A DNA stretch of 64,000 bases, taken from IMG/VR virus record IMGVR_UViG_3300050821_004383, positions 34,516-98,515 of that record. One strand, 5' to 3'. Shown in pieces: positions 45,320-56,766 of the stretch. The translations under genes and the position numbers were made by a program. Below the pieces are notes generated by a model. The model worked only from the letters and a program-made list of their open reading frames with translations. It did not search any database and was not told the DNA's origin. How positions within the stretch are numbered: position 1 is the first letter of the stretch; every line of letters starts with the position of its first letter. Origin of the DNA: a virus.

Positions 45320-46219
45320 ATGAACTTTAAACAGCAGGCAGAAGTATTCATGACGGAGATTGCCAGCCGCAAGAGCGACCCCGTTCGCTCGAATACCCTG
45401 CACGTTTACCGTTCCCTTCTGGACGCCCGCATCTTACCCGCCATCGGTGGGGTAGAAATGGCGGACGTTAACAACAAGACCGCCAGGATGCTCGTGGGCC
45501 GTCTAACCGAGGCCCAACTGAGTCCCGCCACAATCAACTTGGCGGTTGCCTTGATGAAGCAGGTCGTCAAATCAGCCGTGGACGACGAAGGGGACCCGTT
45601 ATACCCTCGCACTTGGAATAGTCGTTTTATAGATGCTCCCCGGGTGGTCCCGGCGAAGCAGAAGACCCCTATTGCCCCGGTGGAGGCCCTTTCCAGGGCC
45701 GTAGGGACGACTTCCGGGGAAGTTAAGGCATTGGTAGCCCTTCTGGCTGGAACGGGCCTCAGAATTGGGGAAGCGCTGGCCTTGATGGTCGGACCAGACG
45801 ACGGAAAGAACTCATTCTGGATTCCAGAATCCGGAACGCTGATTATCCGCACCACGATGGTGGACGGGGTTATCCAGTTGGACACAAAGACCAAAGCAGG
45901 CACTCGTATCGTGGATTTAGACCCTAATCTCGCGTGGCTCCTCCGCGCGACATTCAGGGACCGCGAGTCCGGGGTGTTGTTTACAGCCTCGGAGAGTACA
46001 TTCCGCCGCTGCATGAAGGAGCACGGCATTTCTGGCTTCCACTCTATGCGCCGTTTTCGAATCACCTACCTGCAAAACAGTAGCGTACCAAATACTTTGG
46101 TGAAGTTTTGGGCGGGACACGCTGCTGGTGATATGACGGAGCGTTATACGAAATTTGGCGCTCAAATCGAAGAGAGAAAGAACTGGTCTGAAAAGGCCGG
46201 ATTGGGGTTTAGCCTATGA
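45320..46219 (+). CDS. int: tyrosine recombinase/integrase
   Basis: TGLRIGE (R), TKTK (K), FHSMRR (HxxR), WAGH, ERY (Y); own promoter TTGACA-17-GACACT at 45272. Confidence 0.9.
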   Translation: MNFKQQAEVFMTEIASRKSDPVRSNTLHVYRSLLDARILPAIGGVEMADVNNKTARMLVGRLTEAQLSPATINLAVALMKQVVKSAVDDEGDPLYPRTWNSRFIDAPRVVPAKQKTPIAPVEALSRAVGTTSGEVKALVALLAGTGLRIGEALALMVGPDDGKNSFWIPESGTLIIRTTMVDGVIQLDTKTKAGTRIVDLDPNLAWLLRATFRDRESGVLFTASESTFRRCMKEHGISGFHSMRRFRITYLQNSSVPNTLVKFWAGHAAGDMTERYTKFGAQIEERKNWSEKAGLGFSL

Positions 46220-46755
46220 GAACCGAGATATTCAGAGACACTAGTTTCAGGGATTTAACTGCTCGCATGGAGGCCATAATTGCAGTCCTTTTAGGACAAG
46301 GCAATGAGATTGTCGCAGTGACAACTACCTCCACGGCAGACTCGATGACAGTATCGTATTACGGCGCTATCTTTTACAGGAAGGCCGCATGAGGTTACCG
46401 CGCTGGCTACGACACTTCGGTGCAAAGTTCCTCGCGCTCCACGAAGAAGAATCGGGCGGCATGATGCACGATTACGCAAACGGTCAGTGGAATGAACTAA
46501 TGACCTGGACCGACGATAAGGGGCAAGCAGAGGCGTTAAGCATCGTGGACAGCATCTTCTCTGGCGCTAGGGATGCGATTTACATCGTTTGTATTCGAGT
46601 CGGACCCAGGAGGGGCTACTTCGTAGTTTACGATTCTAACTTGACGTATTATCACCGTTCGTTTTGGACGGGGATTTACGAGCCGGAAGAAGCATTCGAT
46701 GACGTTAGAGCATACTGTCGGCAAGTTGCAGACAAGATGGGATTCAGGAGGCCAG

Positions 46756-47577
46756 ATGAAGCGACTGACAATCAATATCCCGGGTGACCGTGGAAAGTTA
46801 TACGAAGTCATTCACTACCCGGCTGGGGAGATTCAGACCCGTCTGACTCCGGAAGGCATTCGTGCATGCGCTGACAAAGAGGAGTATGTCATTGTCGCGA
46901 ATCCGATTCCCGATATCATCGAACTAGCGCAGTTGAAGGATGCGCTGGATGCGGAGTCAACCGTATTTTACAGAAAGCTGGAACTGCCGTATCTCCCCTA
47001 CGCTCGGGCTGACCGCCGTTTTGTAAAAGGTGATTCGTTCGGACTGGCAGTCTTCGCGAGACTGATTAACTCGCTCCACTTTGACACCGTTACCACGTTT
47101 GATGTTCACTCGGCCTGTGCGGAGGTGCACATCAACAATCTTCTCAATCTCGACCCGATTCATCACTACGACCAGCTTACCGACTGCATCAAGTACCTCG
47201 GTGGACCAAACGGCGTCGTGTTAATAGCACCAGACAAGGGCGCGAAGAGACGATACGACTTGGAGAGTTACGGCTTGCAGGTCTTAGAGGGCGAGAAGGT
47301 CCGCGACCCGAAGACCGGGAAGTTGTCCGGATTCAAGATTGACAAGCGGGTTGCAGAGTACCCGTCCGGCCTTATCGTGGATGATATCTGCGACGGCGGC
47401 GGGACCTTCATCGGCCTGGGACAGGAGATTCGCAAACTGAATCCAAAGATGAACCTGGGGCTATACGTCTCCCACGGCATCTTCTCTCAAGGCACCGAAA
47501 AGCTGTATGAAATTTTCAACGCGGTGTTTATTTCGGACTTTTCGTTTATCGGGAATTATCCGTTCAAGAAAATTTAG
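46756..47577 (+). CDS. PRPP-synthetase-like protein (NARP1 Adps-like)
   Basis: PYLPYARADR, DVHS, APDKGA, IVDDICDGGGTF, VSHGIFS. Confidence 0.9.
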   Translation: MKRLTINIPGDRGKLYEVIHYPAGEIQTRLTPEGIRACADKEEYVIVANPIPDIIELAQLKDALDAESTVFYRKLELPYLPYARADRRFVKGDSFGLAVFARLINSLHFDTVTTFDVHSACAEVHINNLLNLDPIHHYDQLTDCIKYLGGPNGVVLIAPDKGAKRRYDLESYGLQVLEGEKVRDPKTGKLSGFKIDKRVAEYPSGLIVDDICDGGGTFIGLGQEIRKLNPKMNLGLYVSHGIFSQGTEKLYEIFNAVFISDFSFIGNYPFKKI

Positions 47578-48274
47578 AATGGGATTAACGAGAAAACGAA
47601 ATCGAATCAGCGGTGGATGCCCGGTCGGAATCGAGACCTGGACCGATATTTGGTTGTTGACAAACTTCCCCACTTTGTGGCATATTGCACATGGGATGGA
47701 ATACGAGATAAAGGAGAAATCATGAGCAAACTTAGCAAGACAGCAGCAGCCTCGATGCGCGGAGGACCAGTAGAGAAAAAGACTGACCCGTTCGACACGA
47801 ACGAGAAGAAAATCCAGGAGCTACGCAACCAGCGTGCAAACAAACTCGCCGTCAACCGATATGATTTCATCGACGCTTTGATTGAGGAGTACGATAAAAT
47901 GACGCTCGTCGCACTGGAAGCACTCAAGTCAAGACCGGAGGCAGTATGAACTTCGTTGAAAATTTCAAAGACGTGGAAGACATCGTGAGAAACTACGGCG
48001 GCACCTCTCAAGAGGACTTGGAAGGCGCTACGATTCATCTCGCGTGGTACGGCTACGGCTCGTACAGCGGCGATAGTTTCGTTCTCTACGAGAAGGGCGG
48101 CAAGCTGTTCGAGGTGAACGGGTCACACTGCTCTTGCTACGGCCTGGAAGGCCAGTGGGAACCGGAAGAAACTTCCCTGGCGGCGCTCGCAATGCGCGAC
48201 CTGTCCAGCGCCGAATACGAAGGGTCCTCGGACGCGCAGAAAATTTTGACGGCATTCATTAAGGGGAGGGCTTC

Positions 48275-49813
48275 ATGACGGAAAATTTTGTGGACGATAA
48301 CTACGTGAGCGACCCGAACAGTCCAATCTTCATGATTGACTTCTACAAGTTCGGGCACGTGGACCAGTACCCGAAGGGCATCAAAAGAATCTGGGTGAAC
48401 TTCACTCCCCGTTCGACGCGCGTGGAAGGCGAGAAGGGTGTCATCTTTTTCGGGTTGCAACGGTTCATCAAGAAGGTCTTAATTGACCAGTTCAACGAGA
48501 ACTTCTTCGAGCGTCCTTGGTTTATGGTGGAGCAAGACTATAAACTCGTGATGAAGAAGACTCTCGGCGTGGACGCTCGCACAGACCACATCGAACAGTT
48601 GCACGACCACGGCAAGCTGCCGCTCGATATTTACGCGCTACCGGAAGGCACCTACGTTCCGCTCGGAGTCCCCGCGATGGTCATCGTGAACAACCAGGAT
48701 TGGGCGTTCTGGCTCCCGAATTACATTGAGACCATGTGCTCCAACAATCTCTGGCACGCGTGCACCTCCGCGAGCACCGCGCACCGTTACCGCCGTCTCT
48801 TCATTCAAAAGGCAATCGAGGCCGGGGAGACCGACCTCAGCTTCATCGATTGGCAGGGTCACGACTTTTCCTACCGTGGGCTGTCCGGCTACGAATCGGC
48901 GGCGCTCTCAGGCATGGGGCATCTGCTCTCGTTCTCCGGTACCGACACGCTCCCAGCGATTCTGGAAACGAACCACTATTACGACGCGGACCTTTCGGTC
49001 GGCGGCTCCGTTCCCGCGACGGAGCACAGCGTTATGTGCGCCGGGTCTAAGGAGTCGGAACAGGAGACGTTCCGCCGCCTGATTGAGGACGTTTACCCCA
49101 CCGGGGTCGTTAGCATCGTTTCCGATACCTGGGACCTTTGGAAGGTGCTGACGGAGATTATCCCCAACTTGAAGGATAAGATTCTCGCCCGTCAACCCGC
49201 TGGCTATCTGCCCGCGAAGGTTGTCATCCGCCCTGACTCCGGAGACCCGGTCAAGATTCTTACGGGCGACGATACAGCGGAGCGCTTCACCCCCGCGTGG
49301 TACGGCGCACTTTTGCTTCTTGCGAGGGCCTTGGGTACCGACGAGGATGGCACCGGAAAATTGAACCGTCACATAACAAAGGGCGGACTCATTTACGGTG
49401 ACAGCATCACGGTAGACCGCGCGGAACAAATTCTGACTCGCGCTATCCGCCTCGGTTACTCGCCGTATAACTTCGTCTTCGGTATCGGGTCTTACACGTA
49501 TCAGTATGTGACCCGCGACACTTACAACTTTGCATTCAAAGCGACCGCAATCGAAACAGAGAACGGCGTGCAGGCTATTTTCAAAGAGCCTGTCACCGCT
49601 GGTGAGTTCAGTAAGAAGTCGCACCGTGGAATCCCTGCCGTTATGACTGAATCAGATGGAACATTCGCGGTACTACAAACGGAGGACCCGCGTTGGCTCG
49701 ACCATCCGGACTCCGCGTTCCGCAAGGTCTTCAATGGCTCACTCCAGGTGGATGAACCGTTCGGAGTGATTCGAGACCGAGTCCGTGCGCGTGACTTCAA
49801 GGACACGCTTTGA
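48275..49813 (+). CDS. nicotinamide phosphoribosyltransferase-like protein (NARP1 Namat-like)
   Basis: DFYKFGH..QYP, HDFSYRG, PATEHSVM, SIVSDTWD, IRPDSGDP, IYGDSIT, FGIGS. Confidence 0.92.
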   Translation: MTENFVDDNYVSDPNSPIFMIDFYKFGHVDQYPKGIKRIWVNFTPRSTRVEGEKGVIFFGLQRFIKKVLIDQFNENFFERPWFMVEQDYKLVMKKTLGVDARTDHIEQLHDHGKLPLDIYALPEGTYVPLGVPAMVIVNNQDWAFWLPNYIETMCSNNLWHACTSASTAHRYRRLFIQKAIEAGETDLSFIDWQGHDFSYRGLSGYESAALSGMGHLLSFSGTDTLPAILETNHYYDADLSVGGSVPATEHSVMCAGSKESEQETFRRLIEDVYPTGVVSIVSDTWDLWKVLTEIIPNLKDKILARQPAGYLPAKVVIRPDSGDPVKILTGDDTAERFTPAWYGALLLLARALGTDEDGTGKLNRHITKGGLIYGDSITVDRAEQILTRAIRLGYSPYNFVFGIGSYTYQYVTRDTYNFAFKATAIETENGVQAIFKEPVTAGEFSKKSHRGIPAVMTESDGTFAVLQTEDPRWLDHPDSAFRKVFNGSLQVDEPFGVIRDRVRARDFKDTL

Positions 49814-51534: not shown

Positions 51535-51556
51535 ACCCCCGGGGAAACCCGGGGGT
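51535..51556. terminator. hairpin at the convergence of the rightward and leftward arms
   Basis: ACCCCCGGG-GAAA-CCCGGGGGT preceded by an A-run (U-tail on the - strand). Confidence 0.8.
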
Positions 51557-51576: not shown

Positions 51577-51762
51577 TTACTTCTTGTTCTTTTTCTTCGG
51601 TTCCGGTGTTACCGCTGGGGTCCTTCCGAGGAACTTATCCAGGTCAAAATCCTGAGTCGCTTCGTTGTACTTCTCTTCCGAGACGCCACTGGCATTGCGG
51701 AACTGAACTCGAACCGCGCCGCGTGCTAGCTGGTCTCCACCGCCGTTAACTGTTGCTCCCAT
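51577..51762 (-). CDS. hypothetical protein, last gene of the virion operon
   Basis: AAGGAG RBS before MGATVNGGG. Confidence 0.55.
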   Translation of the reverse strand: MGATVNGGGDQLARGAVRVQFRNASGVSEEKYNEATQDFDLDKFLGRTPAVTPEPKKKNKK

Positions 51763-51919
51763 CGTTGGCTCCTTTTTCTTGAAGTTGTGGAGGGAGTTGG
51801 GACTCTTCTTCCGCAGAGAGAACCGCAGGCGGCTGCCCCAGGTATGCAAAATCGAGGTAGTTTTTCCTGGTAGGTTCGACGCCTAACTGCTTCATCTTCG
51901 ATAGAACGATGTCTTCCAT
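51746..51919 (-). CDS. 57-aa protein coupled to the large multi-domain gene (not in ORF track)
   Basis: GGAGG RBS and TAATG overlap; MEDIVLSKMKQLGVEPTRKNYLDFAYLGQPPAVLSAEEESQLPPQLQEKGANDGSNS. Confidence 0.6.
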   Translation of the reverse strand: MEDIVLSKMKQLGVEPTRKNYLDFAYLGQPPAVLSAEEESQLPPQLQEKGANDGSNS

Positions 51920-54900
51920 TACTGCCCTCCTAATCCGCTCATGATACCACTGTACTTCATTTCCGCTTGTTTGTCAAGAGGTTTCTTGGTCTTTGTTTCG
52001 GCCTTCGTCTTGACCGCCGCTCTCGTGTCCGCGACCTGCTTTTGAGCATCTTCTGATAACTTCAAGATTTGCTGGCGGGTAGCGTCCAAATTCTGCTTAC
52101 CATCCGAGTACTTCTTCCAAATATCCTTCACGACCTTTTCGTTCGCGGGTGACTTCCACTCGGATGGGAATATGTTACGAACGTGCTCCCACACGACCGA
52201 CTGTAGCTCTCTAGGCTTGATGCCCAAGTCCTTGGCGGCTTGGCGGTACGCTTCCGCGTACAACGGATATGTGCCCTTCACTCCGGTCCCGGTGTGCTTC
52301 CCCGCCTTCCCGAAGTTGTCCAAGACTTCCTCAGCGGTGCCGCCCAATGGCTGTAACAACGCCGCAGCGACCGCGTGGGTGTCAATCGTTACGTCCTGGT
52401 CGTTGGTCGGGTCAATGATGTTGTTGTAGAAGTTTCTAACCTTGTGCATCCCGCCCAGCTTGTCCGAGATGTTCTCTCTGCTGCCGTCATCCAAAATAGA
52501 CAATGCGTTAGAAATTTGGGGTAGACTCCCCCAAGCAATCTTGGACGGGCTTCCATCAGCATTGGTGCGCAGCCCGGTGCTCTCTCCCGTTCCCGGGTCT
52601 ATGCTCTCGAAGCTGCGAGGGTTGTGAGCCTCGTCGCGGAGACGGACCCAGGCCGCGCGGTCGTACGGGTCGGTAAGTTCAGACAACTTCTTGCCTTCCA
52701 GATTCTTAATTGCCTTCCCCAAGTCTTCGTTCGCGCCCGTCTTCTTCACGATATCGAGACCCTTTTGAATCATTTCCGGGGTCGTTACCGTGTCTTGGTG
52801 GTTCTTGTAGATGTCGGTGATGCGGCGAGCCAGCGACACGTTCATGTCCCAGTCCTTTTGAGGAGACTGAGTCGCGATGGTGCCAGCCGCTTGCGGCTCC
52901 GTAATCCCGTGCTGGTCCGATATTCCCTTCGACAGCTTGTTCGCGGACTCGTACCACTTAGCGTTCGCAACCTGCTTTTCCGGAGCAACTTGGTTGTAGA
53001 GGAACTTCAAGTTGTCTTTCGCGTGGTCCACGAAGCGAGACAGAACCTTGGTCGGGTCCTTAACACTTCCTGAGATTTTAACTCCCGGGTAGTTGCGGAC
53101 GGTGTCGGCAAACTTCTGTTGCAGCTTGTCTGGCGTCTGCTTAAGCGAATCCATTCCTACGGTTAAAGGCTCGCCTTCCAAAGCGTTCTCGGTAGCGTTC
53201 TTCCCCTCCGGAACGCGGGTTGATACGCGGTCCTTCGCGATGTTGCTCTGCTCTATTTGAGGAGCTTCCCCGGTGCCGCCCGTCGGAATTGTTTCTCCAC
53301 TTCCAAGATGGTAGATAGCCTTCTGGTTCGCGGCCTTGCCCGCAGCGATGGCTTCGTCGTGGTCGTCTATCGTTCTGCTGATGTCAAGGGTCGTTTTTCC
53401 GGTGTCTGGGTCCTTCCAGGTGCCGACCGCGTGTCCCGGCTGCGACAACACATCAACGTTGTCTTTCTTAAACTTGTCCAGAACTTCCGGAGTCAACTTA
53501 TCAACTTGCAAAGTACGCTCCGGGTAAGAGCCGACCGCATGCAAGTTCTCCCCAGCGAGGTTCTTGCCTTCCGGCGTGAACGTAGAGCCGCCCTCTGCTT
53601 CATGCGCAGCGATTTGAGGCTCCGCAGTCTTGCTTATTCCGCTTCGCTCTCGCTTTCCTGCTGCGCCTTCATCAGCTTCTCGTACTTCTTTGGATGAAAC
53701 TCTTCCAGCAGCCCCATCTTGTTCTTTTCCTTGTCTTCCGGACTTAGAGGATTTTCTTTCAGATAATCCTGCATCGGAATCCCCTTCATGAACTCCTGGG
53801 GTGGTTGGTGTTTCACTGCCATTGTAGACTCCTTGTAGTTTCTTAACATATTCTGCCAAACGTCCCGGACTCATGTGATAATTTACGTGCAGACCTTCCT
53901 CACGTAGAGGAATGTTCGCTTGCACGAGAGCCAGTGCTTCCGGGTTCGATACGTGCCCCTTAGCTCTTTCATACAGCGCATCAAAGACCTTATCCAGGTC
54001 CTTGCCGCTCAATCCGCCTTCTTCTCTAAGAATCTGGCGGGCGCGAGCGATGTCGGTACGCGCTCCCGTATTCTGATTCATAGGAATGTCGTTGTGAACT
54101 TCATCAAATGCGGGACCACCCAGGATTCCAACCACGCGTTGAGCCAGACCCTTCGGTCCCTCTTCCGCGTCGGAAACATCTGTTTGTACCGCAGCCGCAG
54201 CGCCTGTTTCTATCGCGTCCGGGTGGTGCTCCGAGATGAAGTTAATCGGATTCAAACCCTCCGCGACGTTCGCCATGATGTGGCCGTGCTCGTGCTCATG
54301 ACCCTGCTTCGAGGTTCGGCCTTCCACGCCGCCGATATCCATCGGAGACTGGGTTGCCTTCATTACCGGGCTGTGAGCTATTCTCTCGTCTGCGAGAACG
54401 TCGGCGTCCTTCTTCTCTTCTTCTACCTTGGTTTCCGCAGCGTGCTTCTCTTGAATCTTCTGAACTTCTTTCTGCCACTTCTCACGCGCGGCCTTGTTCT
54501 GGTCGTACGCCTTTTTAACCGCTTCGGTAATTTGAATCTTGCGGTTTGCTTGAGAGTCATTCAACTGTTGTAGAAGCGCTCTATCGCCCTCTGTTCTCTT
54601 ATCAACCGGAGTTTTGTCAAGATACTCTTGGAACTTCGACAATAGATTATCGAAGTTGCTTCTCTCTACGGTCGTGCCAGCGAGAGACGCTAGCGCAGAG
54701 TGTAGCATGTGGTCCGGTGGAGGCATTTGTGGCGGAATAGGCGCAGGCGGCGGAGGAATGTCCGGACCAGCCGGACCTTGTGGGTACGGAACGTCTATAG
54801 CCTGGGACGGTGGAACTGACGGGCCTCCCGGTGTTGCAAGAGGACGGTCCCCGGCGAACGAGCGGGCCATAAGTTCGTTGCGTGTCATATCAGAAGGAAG

Positions 54901-56766
54901 GATGGCTCTGCTGATGCCTTCCCCGGCTACGGTGCCAGCAGCGCCGCCGATAATCGCGCCCGGTACGCCGCCGATAGATGCTCCCAAACCAGTACCGATT
55001 GCGGTGCTTCCCGCTCTCGCTACTTGCGCGGCAACCTTGCGAACTGGTCCTACGTCCGCGCTCCCGCGCACGGTCTTCTCCGCGTTGAATATCTGGCGGT
55101 CTAAAGCCTTACGTACGCGGATGTGGGCAGCTTCGTCGCGTGCCCAATCGTACGCTTCCGGTACGCCCGCTTCTTGTAGAGAGCCGTAGATGCCCTTGCG
55201 CAAGCTGTCGATTACCGCCTCGCGAGCCGCGTATTCCGGGCTGCTTTCGCGCAGGCTGGCAGCGTCCCACGGATTCTTTTCCATCAAACGGTTCTTCGCA
55301 ACCAGGGTCTTGCGGATTGCGTCCGCTTCCTTGTTGGTCAAGTCCTTGAAGTTGTGTTCATCAAGAACCTTCATACCCTCGTTTTGGAATCCCGGGGTGG
55401 TCTGGTCCTTCTCTGCTAGCGCGTTTGCAACGTCCTCGAACACGTTGGTGGTGATTGGCTTGTCGCCGTGCTTCTGAACCGCGCCCCCACGCTTAGCTTC
55501 GATTGCTTGACGCCCGTCTTCCACGATGTCGCGAGCGGTCTCGATGCCTGAAATGCCTTCTCCGCCTGCTAACTTGTCGGCCTTGTGATTCTCTTCCGCT
55601 GTGCGGCGAACAATCTCGTAATCGTTATCGTCGTACGGCGCAGCCTTCGATGGGGGTGCAGCCGTCTTGAAATCTTCCTTGGCGGCGTTTGCTGCATCGC
55701 TCACCGCTGGCTTCAACTTTTCCTTGAATGCGTCGAATGCGGCTTTCGCGCCCTTTCCAAGTTCATGACCCTTGTCGGTGAAAACGCGACTCGGGGTCGC
55801 AGACTCTTCTCCGGAGATTCTGCCGTGGACGTGCTCCGCAGCTTTCAATAAAGCGATGTCTGCTAGACCGCCTGATACGTCGCCGTTCTCGAACTTTTCC
55901 GAGATGCCGTTAACAAGAGGACCTAGCATCGGAATCTTCGACATCATCTTATCCGCTGCGCCTGATACTGATTGTGATAGAGCAATCGCGTGACCTAGAG
56001 GTAGAGAGATGCCCATCCCCAAAGGTCCGATAGGAACTGATACGCTCCAATCGTTGCGCTTATCCCACAACTCACGAGCAGTTTCTAGTTCCTTGTTTGC
56101 TTTTGCATCGAGTTCGTCTGCTGGTGCGTCAATCAATCGATGAAGCGCAAGCTGTGTGCGAGACGGTGTTGGAGTCTTCTTGTCGTACGTATTGGTTGCT
56201 GCGTCCAAGTATTGACCTGGGACCGCAGGCAAGGTGCTGGCTGCTGGCATCCCCTGTCCGGCACGCATCTGATTCATCTTCTGTTGAATCGCTAGTTTTT
56301 CTTGTTCTGTCGCCGGGTCTTGGAACGCGTGATAAAGTGCGTTCGGGAAACTCAAGAACGTGTGAAGAGAGTGAGCTACGCCCTTGTTCTCTTCTCCCTC
56401 AATCGGCTTCGCGAAGAAATACGGAGCAAGCGCTGCACCGGGAGATAGTTGAGCTAGCTTTTCCGCAGTTGTCGGCGGCGCAACAGGCTTGAATCCGAAA
56501 TCGAATCCAGACGACTGCTCCGCAGCTTGTGCGGGTTGCGCAGCGTGCGTTTCCGCAGGCTGTGGCTTGAAGCCGAAGTCAAACGCGGGTCCCGTTGGCT
56601 CGGGAGCGGTCTGCTTCGGTTGTCCGTTTTCATCGACACCACCGAGAACCTTGCCTGCTACGTCGAAGGCTTGTCCGTTCTCGATTTTTGATGTGCCCGG
56701 ATACGGCGGCTTATCAAGCTGCTGCGGCCCCTGGTCCTGTTCTTCCACTGTGTTTGGCTCAGCCAT
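51919..56766 (-). CDS. large multi-domain (polyvalent) internal virion/ejection protein
   Basis: 1615 aa after the ejection genes; Gly-rich TM-like segment; HEHGH zincin; GTW..LDIS..QKAIY domain; C-terminal SPQ/KVRNFY/VTIDTH/ELQSVVW domain. Confidence 0.8.
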   Translation of the reverse strand: MAEPNTVEEQDQGPQQLDKPPYPGTSKIENGQAFDVAGKVLGGVDENGQPKQTAPEPTGPAFDFGFKPQPAETHAAQPAQAAEQSSGFDFGFKPVAPPTTAEKLAQLSPGAALAPYFFAKPIEGEENKGVAHSLHTFLSFPNALYHAFQDPATEQEKLAIQQKMNQMRAGQGMPAASTLPAVPGQYLDAATNTYDKKTPTPSRTQLALHRLIDAPADELDAKANKELETARELWDKRNDWSVSVPIGPLGMGISLPLGHAIALSQSVSGAADKMMSKIPMLGPLVNGISEKFENGDVSGGLADIALLKAAEHVHGRISGEESATPSRVFTDKGHELGKGAKAAFDAFKEKLKPAVSDAANAAKEDFKTAAPPSKAAPYDDNDYEIVRRTAEENHKADKLAGGEGISGIETARDIVEDGRQAIEAKRGGAVQKHGDKPITTNVFEDVANALAEKDQTTPGFQNEGMKVLDEHNFKDLTNKEADAIRKTLVAKNRLMEKNPWDAASLRESSPEYAAREAVIDSLRKGIYGSLQEAGVPEAYDWARDEAAHIRVRKALDRQIFNAEKTVRGSADVGPVRKVAAQVARAGSTAIGTGLGASIGGVPGAIIGGAAGTVAGEGISRAILPSDMTRNELMARSFAGDRPLATPGGPSVPPSQAIDVPYPQGPAGPDIPPPPAPIPPQMPPPDHMLHSALASLAGTTVERSNFDNLLSKFQEYLDKTPVDKRTEGDRALLQQLNDSQANRKIQITEAVKKAYDQNKAAREKWQKEVQKIQEKHAAETKVEEEKKDADVLADERIAHSPVMKATQSPMDIGGVEGRTSKQGHEHEHGHIMANVAEGLNPINFISEHHPDAIETGAAAAVQTDVSDAEEGPKGLAQRVVGILGGPAFDEVHNDIPMNQNTGARTDIARARQILREEGGLSGKDLDKVFDALYERAKGHVSNPEALALVQANIPLREEGLHVNYHMSPGRLAEYVKKLQGVYNGSETPTTPGVHEGDSDAGLSERKSSKSGRQGKEQDGAAGRVSSKEVREADEGAAGKRERSGISKTAEPQIAAHEAEGGSTFTPEGKNLAGENLHAVGSYPERTLQVDKLTPEVLDKFKKDNVDVLSQPGHAVGTWKDPDTGKTTLDISRTIDDHDEAIAAGKAANQKAIYHLGSGETIPTGGTGEAPQIEQSNIAKDRVSTRVPEGKNATENALEGEPLTVGMDSLKQTPDKLQQKFADTVRNYPGVKISGSVKDPTKVLSRFVDHAKDNLKFLYNQVAPEKQVANAKWYESANKLSKGISDQHGITEPQAAGTIATQSPQKDWDMNVSLARRITDIYKNHQDTVTTPEMIQKGLDIVKKTGANEDLGKAIKNLEGKKLSELTDPYDRAAWVRLRDEAHNPRSFESIDPGTGESTGLRTNADGSPSKIAWGSLPQISNALSILDDGSRENISDKLGGMHKVRNFYNNIIDPTNDQDVTIDTHAVAAALLQPLGGTAEEVLDNFGKAGKHTGTGVKGTYPLYAEAYRQAAKDLGIKPRELQSVVWEHVRNIFPSEWKSPANEKVVKDIWKKYSDGKQNLDATRQQILKLSEDAQKQVADTRAAVKTKAETKTKKPLDKQAEMKYSGIMSGLGGQ
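53634..53822 (-). CDS. 62-aa gene nested out of frame inside the large multi-domain gene
   Basis: AAGGAG-6 nt-ATG; MAVKHQPPQEFMKGIPMQDYLKENPLSPEDKEKNKMGLLEEFHPKKYEKLMKAQQESESEAE; the host frame here is a G/S/R/E/K-rich linker. Confidence 0.6.
   Translation of the reverse strand: MAVKHQPPQEFMKGIPMQDYLKENPLSPEDKEKNKMGLLEEFHPKKYEKLMKAQQESESEAE

Follow-up and report, generated by a model that had tools for sequence, protein, structure and literature searches.

A small gene very probably lies nested, out of frame, within the coding sequence of a giant phage protein in the virus record IMGVR_UViG_3300050821_004383 of IMG/VR, whose right-hand 64 kb (64,000 nucleotides of a 98.5-kb record, hereafter the window) was analyzed here. 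The giant gene (window positions 51919-56766, minus strand) is an open reading frame (ORF) with a translation of 1615 amino acids, and the nested gene (53634-53822, minus strand) occupies the +1 frame of the same strand, where it specifies a predicted small helical protein of 62 amino acids followed by a stop codon. In the frame of the giant gene, which we refer to as the host frame, the same bases are read as a low-complexity inter-domain linker (53637-53822, minus strand; host residues 982-1044) that follows a zinc-peptidase domain resembling that of FtsH in its predicted fold. An open +1 frame is not unusual when considered alone, and the evidence that this ORF is a gene comes from its relatives, in which both its start signals and a pattern of variation that follows the nested frame are retained.

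Read along the minus strand, the start region of the nested gene consists of the Shine-Dalgarno (SD) sequence AAGGAG (53834-53829), which falls within the host codons for K-L-Q-G-V, the spacer TCTACA, and the initiation codon ATG (53822-53820); translation would end at TAA (53636-53634). Bona fide genes of the window carry GGAG or GAGG at positions -8 to -12, which is the same type of SD as that preceding the nested ATG, and the arrangement AAGGAG-N6-ATG is observed four times in the window compared with an expectation of 0.38. An earlier note on this DNA, made from the sequence alone, had described these signals, a 62-amino-acid helical protein in an alternative frame of the same strand, and a host frame rich in G, S, R, E and K, and each of these descriptions agrees with our reading. 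Host residues 982-1044 are 83% G/S/R/E/K/A/D/T and 8% hydrophobic, the corresponding values for the whole giant protein being 59% and 23%. The nested peptide itself contains no cysteine, is 26% hydrophobic, has 13 acidic versus 10 basic residues, and lacks a signal sequence or hydrophobic segment; AlphaFold2, supplied with only five sequences, predicts a four-helix structure with a predicted local distance difference test score (pLDDT) of 84.7. A longer, 71-amino-acid version beginning at 53849 was rejected, since it has no SD and its extension is broken by stop codons in two related loci (L007 and L008). Likewise, we do not claim a dedicated promoter for the nested gene, for which the candidate is a weak 9/12 match located ~250 nt upstream.

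Five ORFs in the +1 frame of the giant gene reach 40 amino acids or more. When synonymous codons were randomized while the host protein was held fixed, the +1 frame remained open across the window linker in 48% of trials, and the same procedure applied across the related loci gave values from 9% to 86%. Thus, the nested ORF taken by itself, without its relatives, is not beyond chance.

Two kinds of search of viral and metagenome contigs supplied the relatives, one with the peptidase domain, which is independent of the nested frame, and one with the small peptides. Together these yielded 25 distinct sequences that carry the upstream peptidase domain, with peptidase identities to the window descending to 25%; the relatives are diverged phages, presumably of soil, and many of their contigs belong to JGI metagenome records. 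A second scan of viral contigs with a peptidase profile added no further contigs. In all 25 relatives (loci are designated L and individual proteins P), an SD-preceded ATG opens a +1 ORF of 42-67 amino acids where the peptidase domain ends, with GGAG, GAGG or AGGAG located 6-10 nt before the ATG, and these ORFs terminate near the end of the linker. The host residues encoded at the SD differ by group (Q/K-G, E-D or R-R), and each combination spells an SD. Retention of the ribosome-binding site and the ORF in homologues, which had been proposed as a check on the gene, is therefore found in 25 of 25 cases, and selection on the nested frame is apparent from the variability at each codon position.

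This variability was evaluated using the peptidase domain as a control, in which it follows the expected ranking of the three host codon positions (3 >> 1 > 2). In the overlap, the position that varies least is host position 3, which corresponds to nested position 2, and host third positions account for 23-28% of differences compared with 48-60% in the peptidase control. The effect is significant even for single independent pairs (Fisher's exact test, p = 1.7e-5 for the window and L007, and 8.5e-5 for the window and L008). The nested peptides fall into three families, designated A (the window, L007, L008, L058 and L061, plus the called proteins P0004 and P0005), B and C, and in each of these the nested sequence is better conserved than the overlapping host sequence (identities of 0.55 versus 0.45 in A, 0.60 versus 0.50 in B, and 0.44 versus 0.29 in C), irrespective of which frame guides the alignment; within the control region, by contrast, conservation of the +1 frame is much lower than that of the host frame. 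A sliding scan of the giant gene, covering ~1200 aligned codons, revealed only one clear reversal, at residues 985-1041. These comparisons show a stronger amino-acid constraint on the nested frame than on the host frame. The host frame is nevertheless open in every locus examined, whereas the chance of its remaining open under synonymous re-coding of the nested protein has a median of ~0.03 (20 loci) and is 1.7% for the window alone. Given the constraint on the nested frame, and a host frame that is open everywhere despite this ~3% chance, both frames are maintained by selection.

The domain preceding the nested gene (53815-54381, minus strand) is predicted to be an FtsH/M41-like zinc peptidase with the motif HEHGH. 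Its AlphaFold2 model (20 sequences) has a pLDDT of 93.7, and the top matches of this model in a Foldseek search of the PDB are all FtsH protease domains (probability 1.0, TMq 0.5-0.56). At the sequence level, matches to M41/FtsH are weak, reaching 13.5 bits, which is below the Pfam curated cut-off of 29.9. Residues E31 and H34 are invariant across the peptidase alignment (A8), and a Pfam scan of the giant protein found no AAA+ domain. The domain is thus M41-like in fold and not an FtsH. Zincin-type domains of this kind have been proposed to process polyvalent polypeptides (Iyer et al., PMC5512222). Among the relatives, the peptidase occurs as three subtypes distinguished by the motifs HEHGH, HEWAH and HELGH, and the three peptide families track these subtypes, although vertical co-inheritance explains this correspondence equally well.

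The SD and ATG of the nested gene fall in codons of the last peptidase helix (helix 172-188 in the AlphaFold2 model of window:53815-54381), and for this reason the small gene and the peptidase are inherited and shuffled as one block. The domain that comes after the linker differs among loci, and the domain order of the giant protein is permuted: residues 1044-1161 of the window protein, which follow the linker, correspond to residues 408-525 of the protein encoded by L006:4780-9294, where they lie upstream of the peptidase (residues 613-777). In this locus, the nested gene still comes after the peptidase. In L005, the same downstream domain is instead preceded by a region that has neither HExxH nor the nested ORF and whose +1 frame is filled with stop codons, an absence that holds for the part of the ORF present, as it is cut by the contig end. 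These two loci bear out the earlier suggestion that nesting keeps the pair linked when domains are shuffled. Two further loci (L004 and L003) have an insertion of 240-290 amino acids after the linker.

A second small gene (51746-51919, minus strand), encoding a 57-amino-acid protein that we call module 2 and that bears the motif TR-K/E-NYL...G-PP, is coupled to the end of the giant gene, as had also been noticed previously. Its ATG overlaps the giant-gene stop codon (TAATG), with GGAGG located 8-12 nt upstream, and its homologues share 40-58% identity. In L017, L032 and L034, the homologue is a separate gene that follows the giant gene, and a separate copy also occurs in L057. In L002, L006, L014 and L041-L044/L050, by comparison, the C-terminal linker of the giant gene is G/A/T-rich and is overprinted in its +1 frame by module 2; the giant ORF extends for 30-50 further codons in L002, L006, L014 and L041, and the embedded loci exhibit the same reversal of codon-position variability as the nested gene. 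The second small gene is thus real, and its family spans separated, overlapped and embedded layouts; it probably belongs to the same set of small proteins as the nested gene. The C-terminal tail of the L006 giant protein resembles a separate downstream gene of L017 over a motif of only 5-6 residues, and we make no claim of a relationship.

How might the nested gene act? Ribosomes could initiate at the internal AAGGAG-ATG of the long late transcript and translate 62 codons in the +1 frame, the host frame specifying a flexible inter-domain linker over this stretch. In the mechanism we favor, the small helical protein would be made late, alongside the giant protein and from a shared message, and would act on that protein. 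Specifically, it may bind the peptidase module and restrain or time proteolysis, such as self-processing at linkers, until assembly or ejection. By analogy with small peptides such as lambda CIII, which affects FtsH in this manner, the nested peptide could quite plausibly be a partner of the peptidase module, a proposal that we advance tentatively; a strict inhibitor or "immunity" role is rather doubtful. A wider generalization appears less likely still, namely that giant ejected or polyvalent proteins carry overprinted cognate regulators (inhibitors, immunity proteins or chaperones) in the linker after each enzymatic module, with which they would recombine as one cassette, the free-standing and fused copies in Acidobacteriota serving as "orphan" neutralizers of incoming phage effectors.

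Several observations weigh against a partnership with the peptidase. Co-inheritance of the two would be expected even without a functional link, given that the start signals lie within codons of the domain. In one relative (L027:2519-3085), EEWAH replaces HEWAH, such that the first zinc ligand is lost, and yet the nested ORF is kept, albeit in a shorter form (ending ...PVGEL). Comparison with hhalign does not support homology between the three peptide families (E = 0.021, 0.54 and 0.0027), and we treat them as positional equivalents only; homology between family A and module 2 is likewise unsupported. Furthermore, a search of 1.84 billion representatives with the nested-peptide profile retrieved 85 mostly small proteins, among which relatives of families B and C exist in free-standing form. 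The family C module (module 1) is fused with module 2, in either order, in P0025, P0029, P0033, P0091, P0094 and P0099, and the two occur as adjacent or overlapping genes in metagenome-assembled genomes (MAGs) of Acidobacteriota. This adjacency and fusion suggests that the two small proteins act together in a joint function that is not tied to one domain. In the three Acidobacteriota MAGs that were checked with the A8 peptidase profile, no relative of the phage peptidase was detected, and on this basis the small proteins of families B and C constitute an independent, probably older, family, with the host "linker" being the overprinted reading. By analogy with orphan immunity genes, the free-standing copies could also be "orphan" copies. 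The layout of a domain followed by its cognate inhibitor, which the earlier note had envisaged, is therefore borne out with respect to position and linkage, while its premise of one inhibitor per domain is complicated by the adjacency and fusion of these modules. A 159-amino-acid protein (HEAGH, GGVAGE) encoded ~1 kb from the free-standing small genes of L055 was considered as an M41-type peptidase and dropped: Pfam returned nothing, hhalign matched the motif only, and the A8 profile found nothing in that genome.

These observations lend weight to an alternative that we consider a realistic possibility, in which the nested ORF is a real gene with a function independent of the peptidase. Such a gene would encode a late-operon small protein working with the second small protein, perhaps assisting the giant protein in assembly or packaging, forming a minor part of the virion, or countering defenses, and its position in the linker would be historical, neighboring coding regions having been fused by read-through of a pre-existing small gene in another frame. 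The module 2 family exhibits all stages of such a route, from separate or stop-overlapping genes (the window, L017 and L057) to embedded ones, and loss of a stop codon has likewise been proposed for embedded spanins (PMC6139136). The better conservation of the nested frame, which is probably the older reading, is in keeping with this alternative, as are the free-standing, adjacent and fused proteins of the Acidobacteriota MAGs and metagenomes. However, a separated layout for the gene after the peptidase is found in none of the 25 loci, free-standing contexts are known for families B and C and not for family A, to which the window peptide belongs, and the peptide families correspond to the peptidase subtypes.

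Two further readings dispense with an independent small protein. The ORF might be noncoding, either as a by-product of linker composition or through a constraint at the nucleotide level, with RNA structure or use of the SD as a pause or ribosome-loading site being retained. The frequency with which +1 frames stay open in re-coded linkers and the abundance of long +1 ORFs in these giant genes fit such a reading, as does the isolation of the single window peptide, which matched nothing among 5.8 billion protein clusters and has no Pfam or PHROG family, no usable ESM Atlas match and no Foldseek match in the PDB. Nonetheless, it is very improbable, as the variation has the periodicity of the nested frame with its second position the least variable, all 25 relatives retain the ATG, the SD and the position of the stop, nested identity exceeds host identity, the AlphaFold2 model is confident, and gene calls include free-standing relatives of families B and C; RNA folding yields a z-score of only -1.2, and an Rfam match is absent. 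The location of a same-strand +1 frame at a domain boundary could alternatively reflect a programmed +1 frameshift that provides the peptidase part with an alternative C-terminus and an early stop. Because in-frame stop codons occur 2-17 codons before the conserved ATG in most loci (2 in L011 and L015, 6 in L007), almost no room is left for such a shift, and the conserved SD and ATG serve initiation and not a shift site, which together make frameshifting the least credible of these readings.

Embedded phage genes are already known, the Rz1 gene of lambda and its relatives being embedded in the +1 frame of Rz, and spanin genes occur in embedded, overlapped and separated layouts (PMC6139136). 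The nested gene resembles Rz1 in that it is a small gene lying wholly within the +1 frame of a larger phage gene on the same strand, with its own start, of a kind usually missed by gene callers, and the module 2 family likewise displays several layouts. Unlike Rz1, an outer-membrane lipoprotein of the lysis cassette, the nested peptide has neither cysteine nor a hydrophobic N-terminus and so does not qualify as a spanin, and its gene sits in the linker of a 1615-amino-acid structural-operon protein. The giant protein, which is multi-domain and includes a zincin-like metallopeptidase domain, is in these respects of the polyvalent type, but nested genes are not part of the published account of polyvalent proteins (PMC5512222), from the text of which the words "overlapping" and "linker" are absent. 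Lambda CIII is a small peptide that is both an inhibitor and a substrate of FtsH (PMC1838920), and the pairing of a short phage peptide with an M41-fold protease is similar, as a functional analogy only: CIII is a separate gene that targets the AAA+ FtsH of the bacterial host, whereas the protease domain considered here belongs to the phage itself, is without AAA+, and has the peptide overprinted beside it. An internal out-of-frame start is shared with Escherichia coli GndA, an out-of-frame microprotein within gnd that acts on the protein of its host ORF (bioRxiv 10.64898/2026.10.22.760973). Unlike the nested peptide, GndA is cellular, controlled by heat shock, and a membrane-associated amphipathic helix, and it does not lie in a phage linker.

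The immunity genes of polymorphic toxins are separate genes located directly downstream of the toxin. The nested gene is similar to these in lying immediately 3′ of an enzymatic domain and varying with it, and in its possible "orphan" copies in bacteria; it differs in being overprinted and in adjoining a domain that is only putatively toxic. Literature searches and the paper on polyvalent proteins yielded no account of genes that are nested in linkers of giant phage proteins. As nested genes are skipped by gene callers, small proteins of this kind are missing from phage annotation; these giant genes conceal additional proteins that are probably partners. If giant phage proteins routinely carry linker genes, then "disordered linkers" would be in part the shadow of another gene, domain shuffling would move cassettes consisting of an enzyme plus a small protein, and the linker genes would provide directly testable candidate regulators of phage effector domains, here of an FtsH-like peptidase. 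The case also illustrates a route to gene fusion, by read-through of a small gene in another frame.

Among the large genes of a minus-strand late structural operon, the giant gene comes last; the operon also contains genes for the large terminase, the portal, a match to a major head protein, and a tail-fiber-like protein. From this synteny alone, we infer that the giant protein is delivered in the virion with the DNA. A Pfam scan of the protein reported DUF7178 only (residues 1248-1354, near the C-terminus), a nucleotide search of the giant gene against GenBank phages produced no matches, and in a protein search the C-terminal domain alone was matched, in a few phages. Downstream of the 57-amino-acid gene, and overlapping its end, is a third small gene (51577-51762, minus strand; 61 amino acids) with a perfect AAGGAG-N6-ATG; no further gene separates it from a strong terminator-like hairpin (51535-51556, minus strand) that closes the operon. 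A gene similar to this third one (motif G-D-K/Q-LARGAVR) is present downstream of the giant gene in L039. A promoter-like sequence, TTGACA-17-TACAGT (10/12; 51949-51977, minus strand), lies within the 3′-terminal part of the giant gene, ~30 nt before the start of the 57-amino-acid gene, and might additionally allow separate transcription of the two terminal small genes. Just beyond the end of the operon, the plus strand (45320-49813) encodes a tyrosine integrase, a phosphoribosyl pyrophosphate (PRPP)-synthetase-like protein, and a nicotinamide phosphoribosyltransferase.

Matches to the small-protein modules in bacterial genomes (L054-L057) are all from Acidobacteriota MAGs, and the bacterial host of this phage group is probably a member of the Acidobacteriota. 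Among the free-standing proteins that combine modules 1 and 2, a third, recurrent mini-motif (L/F-T-x-x-D-x-x-F/L/M-L-x-x-x-G-I) is observed at the N- or C-terminus (P0013, P0025, P0029, P0094, P0099 and L054:6116-6370). P0014 contains two copies of module 1, and in P0092 module 1 is joined to a protein labeled CheY-like by its source, on the basis of a precomputed Pfam assignment (PF00072).

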